Below, in pieces: positions 17,410 through 18,351 of a DNA stretch of 33,904 bases. Each line of letters opens with the position of its first letter. Position 1 is the stretch's first letter. The stretch is from the IMG/VR virus record IMGVR_UViG_2541047875_000010, positions 1 to 33,904 of that record. The stretch is one strand, 5' to 3'. Both the position numbers and the translations under genes were made by a program. The stretch comes from a virus. Lineage: Duplodnaviria > Heunggongvirae > Uroviricota > Caudoviricetes. The notes under the pieces are model-generated. The model saw only the letters and a program-made list of their open reading frames with translations. It was not told the DNA's origin and searched no databases.

Positions 17410-17736
17410 ATGAAAAGACGTCTTTTACTACTTTTTCTGTTATCTGTCCTGGCAGTGGGATGCTCGCAGCAAAAAGCTGATGAGCCCCGGCAATTAGTGA
17501 CGGTGTATCCACGATATCCGGAATATGCTGCAGCAAATTATATCAAGGGGCTGGTTGAGGTTAAGTTCGATATTGGTGCTGATGGGACTGTGACACGGAT
17601 CGTTTTTCTCCGCTCAGAGCCTCATAATTTGTTTCGTGATGAAGTGGTGAAGGCCATGGCGAAATGGCGATTTGAAAAGAATCGCCCCTGTCAGGGAGTG
17701 AAGAGACAATTTATCTTTACGCCGTCACGTCCCTGA
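17410..17736 (+). CDS. lipoprotein with TonB C-terminal-like domain
   Basis: ATG 17410 with AGGA upstream; signal peptide with lipobox LAVGCSQQ; YPRYPEYAAANYIKGLVEVKFDIGADGTVTRIVFLRSEP...FRDEVVKAMAKWRFE follows the TonB C-terminal pattern. Confidence 0.55.
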   Translation: MKRRLLLLFLLSVLAVGCSQQKADEPRQLVTVYPRYPEYAAANYIKGLVEVKFDIGADGTVTRIVFLRSEPHNLFRDEVVKAMAKWRFEKNRPCQGVKRQFIFTPSRP

Positions 17737-17858
17737 TGCTTCCAGGTAGAGAGGGGCTGGAAGCAGGAGAAAAATGAAAGAGCCAGCGGTTATATTTTTG
17801 TCATGGCTGACGAGGAATGATGGAAGAAGGCGTTGTATGCCACACAACGCCTCACTGT

Positions 17859-18038
17859 TCATTTCTTCTTTTTCTCTGGTGGAACCCGATGAATAAGAGT
17901 TGCACTGGTTTCCGATGAGATGGCGATATACTCGGGCAAAGTATGCTGGCAGTTTTCCAACTGGTCAAAAATACCTGCTCTCGTCTGTTGCAATGCCTGC
18001 AGCATGCGGCGGCAATGCGCCTTGCTTTTACTAACCAT
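17859..18038 (-). CDS. small hypothetical protein (59 aa)
   Basis: Internal ATG of track ORF 17859-18212, preceded by AGGAAGGA; no family recognised. Confidence 0.3.
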   Translation of the reverse strand: MVSKSKAHCRRMLQALQQTRAGIFDQLENCQHTLPEYIAISSETSATLIHRVPPEKKKK

Positions 18039-18099
18039 CTTTCCTTCCTCTATCAGTCGCTGCGTGAACTCATCATGGAATACCAGGTAAATGCGGATG

Positions 18100-18351
18100 T
18101 TATCGGTTTTGGCTACGCAGCATAGTACAAAACGGACAGGTGCATCCCGGGACGGGGGAGGCGTCACATGTCCCTGTGATGGTTGTTCCGGGTAATGCAC
18201 TGTGTGGGGCATAAAAATGTCCGATAATTTTACTTTCTACCGCAGTTAGTTGATTCGTTGGTCCTGGTAGCACATTGGGCGAGGATTTAAATGCCAGGCA
18301 ACTGAAGGATGATGTCGCAAGGGAGATAGCGAGAATATTTCTGATTTTCAT
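18100..18351 (-). CDS. small secreted Cys-rich hypothetical protein (83 aa)
   Basis: Internal ATG with GAGG upstream; signal-peptide-like N-terminus MKIRNILAISLATSSFSCLA; C-terminal Cys cluster TGTCDASPVPGCTCPFC. Confidence 0.35.
   Translation of the reverse strand: MKIRNILAISLATSSFSCLAFKSSPNVLPGPTNQLTAVESKIIGHFYAPHSALPGTTITGTCDASPVPGCTCPFCTMLRSQNR

Follow-up and report, generated by a model that had tools for sequence, protein, structure and literature searches.

What are two small genes for exported proteins doing between the lysis genes and cos of a lambdoid prophage, and what might their products do in the envelope of the host? The question is raised by the IMG/VR virus record IMGVR_UViG_2541047875_000010, whose positions 1 to 33,904 (33,904 nucleotides, nt) are the whole stretch of DNA that was analysed, hereafter the window. 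A preliminary description of this DNA had placed there a lipoprotein with a TonB C-terminal-like domain and, on the opposite strand, an 83-amino-acid (aa) protein with a signal peptide and a Cys-rich C-terminus, and both open reading frames (ORFs) lie at the coordinates that it gave. The window is a lambdoid prophage with its envelope-cargo genes between the lysis genes and cos. Our answer, to which we give slightly less than even confidence, is that this is a cluster of small envelope-targeted morons at a right end of the phage 21 type, comprising bor/iss, a lipoprotein made of TonB_C only that would act as a decoy, and the exported 83-aa protein. Morons of this envelope-directed sort, sited between lysis genes and cos, are a known kind of element, and the TonB-like gene has been annotated before and listed among morons with no function assigned to it. 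What appears to be new is that the 108-aa product is a selected, complete and putatively lipid-anchored TonB domain within a wider family of short TonB_C lipoproteins, which yields a testable decoy hypothesis, and that the 83-aa gene can be recognized, from its homologues, as a conserved, mobile and undescribed family. The features on which the argument turns are these:

17410 to 17736, plus strand: gene for the TonB C-terminal-domain lipoprotein, 108 aa, ATG at 17410.
17400 to 17403, plus strand: its Shine–Dalgarno sequence AGGA, by reading; GGAAT is kept in L017, L019 and L020.
18100 to 18351, minus strand: gene for the 83-aa exported Cys-containing protein of an undescribed family, ATG at 18351.
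18361 to 18364, minus strand: its Shine–Dalgarno sequence GAGG, 9 nt upstream of the start codon, by reading.
18404 to 18424, minus strand: its candidate promoter elements, an extended -10 TGcTATTAT at 18412-18404 and TATTAT at 18424-18419, by eye.

The 108-aa protein is, judged by profile and alignment, a complete TonB C-terminal domain and not an energy-transducing TonB. Its layout comprises a signal peptide (residues 1–17), the lipobox LAVG-C18 (Cys codon 17461-17463), Ser at +2, a 7-residue linker and TonB_C at about residues 24–103, the N-terminus reading MKRRLLLLFLLSVLAVG-C18-SQQKADE. The profile match upholds the TonB C-terminal-like lipoprotein of the preliminary description (Pfam TonB_C PF03544, 49.2 bits against a cut-off of 24.6, E=7e-13; NCBIfam TIGR01352 tonB_Cterm, 47.4 bits against 27.1). 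E. coli TonB C-terminal domains are the top solved-structure matches (E=1e-14), and the protein aligns with residues 150–233 of E. coli TonB at 41% identity and with zero gaps over 80 residues. Four TonB residues, P161, Y163, W213 and F230, have equivalents that never vary in the alignment of the short lipoproteins with E. coli TonB, and the equivalent of P164 is present in 10 of the 11 sequences. A Foldseek search of the PDB with the AlphaFold model likewise returned TonB C-terminal domains as top matches, including those in BtuB/FhuA complexes (probability 1.0, template modelling score 0.5–0.6). The N-terminal membrane anchor, the Pro-rich spacer and the last 6 residues of TonB are absent, and without anchor and spacer the protein would therefore not couple to ExbB-ExbD; the full-length TonB equivalog models score it at only 45–69 bits against cut-offs of 265–448 (for example, 69 against 315). 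RefSeq calls the gene product 'TonB family protein', and the phage 21 record 'TonB C-terminal domain protein'.

The lipobox seems to be as much a family trait as the domain. LAVG-C18 matches PS00013, and a lipobox occurs in 11/11 family members examined, 10 of which match PS00013 and one (P0057) only the stricter pattern [LVI][ASTVI][GAS]C; it is retained in relatives of 31–72% identity. The Lol +2 rule is the established rule of lipoprotein sorting, and with Ser at +2 it would be expected to send the 108-aa protein to the outer membrane. The ratio of non-synonymous to synonymous substitution rates (dN/dS) is 0.12–0.14 against the homologues of two other E. coli prophages (L019 and L020), which are 70% identical and keep the length, and some 140 near-identical copies hold 6 synonymous and 0 non-synonymous polymorphisms. 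By these substitution patterns the gene is functional and under strong purifying selection, and labels such as 'partial' or 'fragment' are misleading. A tblastn search found the protein in 15 phage records only, none of them lambda, with 72%-identical relatives in Stx1a phages and a 41%-identical one in Klebsiella phage ST13-OXA48phi12.4. In another phage a 44%-identical relative (P0050) directly follows a DUF2514 protein, ahead of an HNH/terminase module. Together with P0057, P0066 and the Klebsiella phage member, P0050 represents a set of short TonB_C-only lipoproteins of about 110–130 aa, each of which combines one TonB_C domain with a lipobox and is 31–46% identical.

The preliminary description held that both genes are expressed independently of late transcription. 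The 108-aa gene stands on the late strand, and late transcription must therefore read through it; for this gene the claim is nevertheless borne out by published RNA-seq from strain LF82, whose prophage Perceval has an identical TonB-like gene at the same place in a region 99.6% identical to the window. There the gene, LF82_160 or 'TonB fragment', is listed as a moron transcribed in LB at 8-fold over the prophage background (PMC9928086 Table 1), whereas Rz and the terminase small subunit, which flank it on the same strand, stay near background in all conditions, and bor varies independently and over a far wider range (PMC9928086 supplementary tables). Antisense read-through as the sole source of the LF82_160 signal is argued against by this different behaviour of bor. 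These data support transcription of the 108-aa gene in the lysogen, independently of the late operon, from libraries whose strand-specificity is not established. Upstream of the gene no convincing Fur box or CRP site was recognized by eye, and in one comparison the homology of distant copies begins only at the ribosome-binding site.

How might such a domain act? The TonB box of a transporter pairs with beta3 of the TonB domain and can reach 20–30 Å into the periplasm (PMC11658791), and an overexpressed periplasmic domain of TonB is reported to inhibit TonB-dependent iron import (Howard et al. 2001, in the form in which PMC9841981 cites it). We propose that the lipoprotein signal, Cys18 and the 7-residue tether would hold the TonB domain at the outer membrane, where TonB boxes emerge, and that the un-energized domain would pair, by TonB-like beta-strand pairing, with the TonB boxes of FhuA, BtuB, FepA, Cir and others or with those of incoming group B colicins. 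Lacking ExbB-ExbD coupling, the tethered domain could therefore only occupy TonB boxes and not energize them, as a competitive decoy. It would thereby lower the entry of colicins, microcins and TonB-dependent phages (of the T1, phi80 and HK022 type), though siderophore uptake would suffer somewhat. We favour this mechanism for the 108-aa protein, though tentatively and as a possibility rather than a probability. With similar reserve, the 108-aa protein may be a natural TonB decoy that represents a new class of exclusion or colicin tolerance in about 23% of complete E. coli genomes, and the 83-aa protein a second envelope factor, unrelated to the first, from a new family whose gene accompanies bor.

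Several observations weigh against this proposal. The AlphaFold model of the 108-aa protein, made from a shallow alignment, has the helix-strand-strand-helix-strand order but only a moderate mean predicted local distance difference test score (pLDDT) of 62. The protein has Tyr where TonB has Q160, a residue near the TonB box, although TonB with Q160L is still active (PMC11658791). A sigma-70 consensus scan of the plus strand upstream of 17410 recognized no site, and a literature search found no functional study of the phage TonB-like protein and no characterized short TonB_C lipoprotein. Genes of this type follow spanin genes on the late strand in three unrelated phage types, which fits a late or lysis role. 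Some of the short TonB_C lipoproteins are chromosomal and non-phage, being encoded beside ahpCF/GST or usp/PTS genes, and the family may therefore have a housekeeping role unrelated to exclusion. For the 83-aa protein, the AlphaFold model reaches a mean pLDDT of 49 with one helix only (35–46), and is therefore unusable for a fold search.

The chromosomal relatives lead to the alternative that survives best, namely that the TonB_C lipoprotein is a factor of envelope structure or virulence, which would bind peptidoglycan or outer-membrane proteins or stabilize the envelope alongside Bor/Iss, with no competition for TonB boxes. The gene is fixed with iss/bor as one module in 1219 genomes, many of them extra-intestinal or pathogenic (ST131, LF82-like, NC101), and its expression is constitutive and modest across LF82 conditions (PMC9928086), both of which would suit such a factor. 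The residues retained are, however, those common to genuine TonB C-terminal domains, and Pfam and NCBIfam give no match to a peptidoglycan-binding family. We regard this role as rather unlikely.

The 83-aa protein reads MKIRNILAISLATSSFSCLA, then FKSS...GTCDASPVPGCTCPFCTMLRSQNR, with either a signal peptide of residues 1–20, cleaved between CLA and FK, or a lipobox SFS-C18, followed by a helix at about 35–46 and the tail C62-x7-C70-x-C72-x2-C75. The N-terminal signal is conserved, so the signal peptide and Cys-rich C-terminus of the preliminary description stand, and so does its claim of export, for which both products have predicted signals. A search of 5.8 billion proteins gave 22 homologue clusters, all from Enterobacteriaceae, and most of the full-length ones are 83–84 aa long at 55–77% identity (Salmonella, Citrobacter, Klebsiella). 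A scan of GTDB species representatives found 4 loci only, including two Buttiauxella copies at 51–57% identity, and tblastn found the protein in 7 phage records only, none of them lambda. F16, C18, A20 and F21 are invariant in the alignment, the helix segment ESKILGSFYSQH is conserved, and the tail GTCDASPVPGCxCPFCTMLRS has three invariant Cys, C62 being lost only in two frameshifted variants. dN/dS is 0.10–0.20 against Klebsiella, Salmonella and divergent E. coli copies (the remaining pair is synonymous-saturated), the differences are concentrated at third codon positions, and the claimed frame is the only one open in all homologues; together these features show the ORF to be a real gene. RefSeq calls no such gene in the two loci inspected, whereas GenBank often does, as a hypothetical protein of 83 or 106 aa. 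Being antisense to late transcription, the gene needs a promoter of its own; the candidate -10 sites were not reported by the consensus scan and lie in a stretch inside the homology that reaches L013.

In the family of the 83-aa protein, the motif S-F-[SG]-C18 matches the permissive PS00013 in 18/18 members and the strict [LVI][ASTVI][GAS]C in none, and the signal peptidase I site between CLA and FK is as conserved as the lipobox. UniRef names one member of the family 'Lipoprotein', and the protein may itself be lipidated at Cys18, as its sequence would allow. Two disulfides are probable. The protein has no match in Pfam, NCBIfam, PHROG or PADLOC, and the family profile none among PDB sequences at E <= 10. 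A pre-pro-peptide resembling heat-stable enterotoxin (ST) was considered and rejected, as the C-x7-C-x-C-x2-C spacing is unlike that of ST and guanylin peptides and there is no family match. In four alleles (P0003, P0006, P0030 and P0038) the middle of the protein is swapped for the overlapping frame of a 117-aa ORF (PEQPSQGHVTPP) and returns in frame before CxCxxC, and other alleles in public assemblies fuse the 83-aa and 117-aa ORFs; such alleles may be compensated frameshifts or assembly errors.

The locations of the homologues indicate that the 83-aa gene moves independently and often travels with bor. Further E. coli lambdoid prophages have it in the same antisense position near cos, but have neither bor nor the TonB-like gene with it. 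In S. enterica subsp. salamae, diarizonae and arizonae it is chromosomal, immediately upstream of a bor homologue, and in the salamae and diarizonae loci examined (L009–L012, L021) it is clustered on one strand with bor and with the genes for a PPC-domain secreted protein and an omptin, in the order PPC, 83-aa, bor, omptin, with an NEL (SspH-like) effector and a SPATE autotransporter nearby in the salamae locus. This cluster looks like a degenerate prophage or a virulence islet. A Klebsiella homologue (L005–L008; 211-kb replicon, plasmid CP024459.1) has Fur-family and CobW genes and an integrase as neighbours, and retains a 54-nt cos-proximal remnant (window 18494-18547), which points to a prophage origin of this copy; in Buttiauxella the gene stands at the border of an island. 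The homology of the distant Salmonella and Klebsiella copies spans only the ORF and 8 nt upstream, to 18359, just short of the GAGG. In related E. coli prophages (L013, 4346-4480) the 83-aa homologue is followed by two further small cargo genes of the cos-proximal niche, a short ORF that resembles a lipoprotein (VKYFALISALLLSAC...) and a DUF3950 gene. In view of the repeated association with bor, we suppose that the 83-aa protein, whether cut by signal peptidase I or lipidated at Cys18, would have a role in the envelope or in host interaction.

A more specific version of such a role would place the 83-aa protein among the superinfection-exclusion lipoproteins typified by T5 Llp and phi80 Cor, as a small disulfide-bonded protein of the outer membrane that blocks, from within the periplasm, the receptor which its own phage uses. 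The protein would fit in its size and export signal, in Cys18, which is invariant within a lipobox that matches PS00013, and in having four additional Cys, as would the UniRef name and the antisense position adjoining cos in several lambdoid prophages. Against this, the protein has no sequence similarity to any described family, the Salmonella and Buttiauxella copies are in non-phage chromosomal contexts, and TSS before the Cys, with S at -3 and F at -2, is unusual for a lipobox, making cleavage between CLA and FK at least as likely. Gene J lies outside the window, and the receptor of the phage is hence not readable from it. PADLOC models of anti-phage defence and exclusion match 0/4 of the proteins tested at E <= 0.1. 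We consider this identification improbable, and keep to the broader reading in which the 83-aa protein, as the member of a new family, would act in the envelope or in contact with the host.

The setting of the two genes bears on a third alternative. The neighbouring features are the following:

15614 to 16147: endolysin, from the ORF list.
16129 to 16605: Rz, from the ORF list.
16364 to 16546: Rz1, embedded within Rz.
16637 to 16921, minus strand: bor/iss, matching Pfam Lambda_Bor at E=9.8e-31; left border of the cluster.
18471 to 18500: cosQ (about 18471-18477) and the right cohesive end (about 18500), placed by phage 21 homology.
18689 to 19234: Nu1, the terminase small subunit, followed by terminase A.

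Both cargo genes thus lie, as first described, between the lysis genes with bor on one side and cos on the other. The bor/iss product, which RefSeq names 'increased serum survival lipoprotein Iss', is a serum-resistance outer-membrane lipoprotein and its gene a known moron. Over 16900-18500 the window shares 99.6% identity with the right end of phage 21 (OL657228), whose record has cosQ at 42902-42908 and ends at 42931, which corresponds to about 18500 of the window. Matches of 99.5–99.6% from 16900 to about 18500-18700 occur in several further phage records derived from E. coli prophages, Perceval among them. A 1171-nt query over both genes is found in 1227/5426 complete E. coli genomes, with at least 99% identity in 1199 and nearly always on the chromosome; carriers include ST131, NC101 and LF82-type strains. 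The G+C content is 40–48% across the cargo region, as against 50–53% in the lysis genes and 54–55% in the terminase genes, and the data support the view that this low-G+C stretch is a hot spot for morons. An imperfect inverted repeat of 26 nt with a 5-nt gap (window 18608-18664) separates cos from the start of Nu1 and presumably belongs to the terminase-binding cosB region; an Rfam scan of 16500-18800 gave nothing but spurious miRNA-like matches, which this palindrome causes.

The position after the lysis genes suggests that the TonB_C lipoprotein might be a late, lysis-associated accessory protein, as its PHROG label 'Rz-like spanin' (PHROG 1267, E=5e-43) would have it. On the same strand, the gene comes directly after Rz/Rz1 or DUF2514 and before the terminase in phages with three different packaging modules, and the late transcript has to pass through it. 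We nonetheless think a lysis role very improbable: a complete Rz/Rz1 pair is already present (16129-16605 and 16364-16546), the protein is a folded TonB_C domain and not a Pro-rich o-spanin, it has no match to Rz1 in Pfam (PF06085), its gene has transcripts in the lysogen, in which Rz is silent, and it has relatives outside phages. The label is probably wrong for this protein and reflects its neighbourhood and lipobox. That one or both ORFs are non-functional, the one a decaying host-captured 'TonB fragment' and the other a chance ORF, is scarcely credible: database labels of 'partial' or 'fragment' on the TonB-like gene, the omission of the 83-aa ORF from two RefSeq loci, frameshifted variants in public assemblies and one degraded copy (L018) would point that way, but both genes have dN/dS of 0.10–0.20 and homologues that keep their length, with the lipobox, at 55–72% identity, the TonB-like gene shows only synonymous polymorphism (6 against 0) and is transcribed in the lysogen, and the 83-aa frame is the sole one open in all homologues. 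The conservation of the two ORFs, whose absence would have counted against their description as morons, is thereby upheld, and the decoy lipoprotein with its exported companion remains the reading that we prefer.

The remaining sequence of the cluster, between the two genes (17737-18100) and upstream of the TonB-like gene, is less clearly coding and contains the following features:

17108 to 17278, upstream of the TonB-like gene: conserved non-coding block of about 170 nt with nested long hairpins (inverted repeat I5, arms 17128-17137/17183-17192 among others).
17737 to 17765, plus strand: hairpin right after the TonB-like stop codon, TGCTTCCAG / CTGGAAGCA.
17828 to 17852, minus strand: 12-bp hairpin followed by UUCUUCC (inverted repeat I4), identical in L017.
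17859 to 18038, minus strand: 59-aa ORF (MVSKSK...) with a strong Shine–Dalgarno sequence GAGGAAGGAAAG, on the strand of the 83-aa gene and downstream from it.
17943 to 18125, plus strand: 60-aa ORF WP_000881610.1, a RefSeq call.

Annotators disagree on 17737-18100, where the phage 21 record has two plus-strand ORFs, PhiR47_2 a 117-aa minus-strand ORF and RefSeq the 60-aa plus-strand ORF. Apart from near-identical copies in E. coli, this segment has relatives only in short metagenome contigs with broken frames; a search for divergent copies in E. coli genomes found only ones of at least 95% identity, and the sole divergent contig (L018) is uninformative because it has indels in every gene. The 60-aa ORF has two in-frame stops and a ratio of non-synonymous to synonymous polymorphism (pN/pS) of 2.2 in the 92.5%-identical variant L017, and a stop allele (G18078T) in 44/140 near-identical copies; on this pattern it is probably a false gene call. 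The 40-aa ORF of phage 21 has lost its start codon in L017. The 59-aa ORF, which matches PHROG 4843 and RefSeq WP_021525754.1, stays open, and 6 nt separate its end from the hairpin at 17828-17852. Its relatives outside the near-identical E. coli set are only two frame-changing metagenome fragments, and its substitutions (3 synonymous and 3 non-synonymous against L017, 2 and 4 among near-identical copies, 5 and 7 in total) are not significantly off neutral, so its coding status is uncertain. Its identity as a diverged DUF3950, a gene at the equivalent place in related prophages, was rejected, as BLASTP gave no alignment.

Of the two hairpins in this segment, that at 17828-17852 (-17 kcal/mol, z = -3.7) folds better than any of 200 shuffled sequences (0/200 fold as well) and is plausible as the terminator of a minus-strand unit. 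The one after the TonB-like stop codon (-16.7 kcal/mol, z = -1.5) is unexceptional against shuffles, and has one compensatory double change in L017 (CTTCC/GGAAG to CTGCC/GGCAG). The upstream block at 17108-17278 is visibly better conserved than the adjoining coding sequences across prophages with different neighbours (67–70% identity over block and TonB-like gene). Copies of it occur in 432 phage records, among them those of lambda, HK629, Stx phages and a Salmonella phage. Its hairpin arms (GTATCGT/ACGATAC, TATTCCCGCAT/GTGCGGGAATA, CGCAG/CTGCG) show one-sided changes only; RNAalifold gives a nested hairpin with compensatory changes absent, and Rfam has no match to the block. The HK629 annotation has a predicted minus-strand promoter inside it.

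What would follow for the host? A near-identical block of 1.17 kb is present in 1227/5426 genomes beside the virulence marker iss, and any phenotype would therefore be widespread. If the proposal is true, a lipid-anchored TonB decoy would be a new route by which a prophage shields its host from TonB-dependent phages, colicins and microcins, and it would bear on siderophore-conjugate antibiotics and on phage therapy via TonB-dependent receptors. Prophages of the Perceval type also carry the morons sitABCD (a TonB-independent metal importer), the NmpC porin and emrE, which are outside the window (PMC9928086); the idea that sitABCD makes up for what a TonB decoy would cost is only speculation. 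Whatever the mechanism, three annotations should be corrected: the 83-aa gene is real though absent from RefSeq at two loci, the 60-aa ORF is probably spurious, and the label of PHROG 1267 is probably wrong.

The cluster can finally be set beside systems that are already known. It shares with lambda Bor/Iss and the other lambdoid right-end morons the niche between the lysis genes and cos, the small envelope lipoproteins and the expression in the lysogen, but neither the TonB-like nor the 83-aa protein has a sequence relationship to Bor. The comparison with the corresponding lambda right-end ORFs likewise gave no protein-level match for either. T5 Llp and the Cor proteins of phi80/N15 are small exported or lipidated disulfide proteins that act on the TonB-dependent transporter FhuA from the periplasm (10.64898/2026.03.26.714494). 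They offer a possible analogy for either cargo protein, with the difference that PHROG and PADLOC detect no homology to either. What Llp and Cor bind on the receptor is its barrel or plug and not the TonB box. The closest structural likeness is to the C-terminal domain of E. coli TonB itself (PDB 1U07, 2GSK, 2GRX), in gap-free identity (41%), alpha-beta-beta-alpha-beta order and conserved residues; the 108-aa protein differs in having a lipoprotein signal and a 7-residue tether instead of anchor and spacer, and Tyr at Q160. With the short TonB_C-only lipoproteins of other bacteria and phages it shares length, lipobox and single domain, although some of these are chromosomal. The functional precedent for a decoy is provided by the exported periplasmic TonB fragments (Howard et al. 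2001, J Bacteriol 183:5885, as far as PMC9841981 relays them), which are likewise TonB domains without energy coupling; they were overexpressed, soluble laboratory constructs, whereas the 108-aa protein would be their natural counterpart, predicted to be lipid-anchored and encoded by a selected, phage-borne gene.

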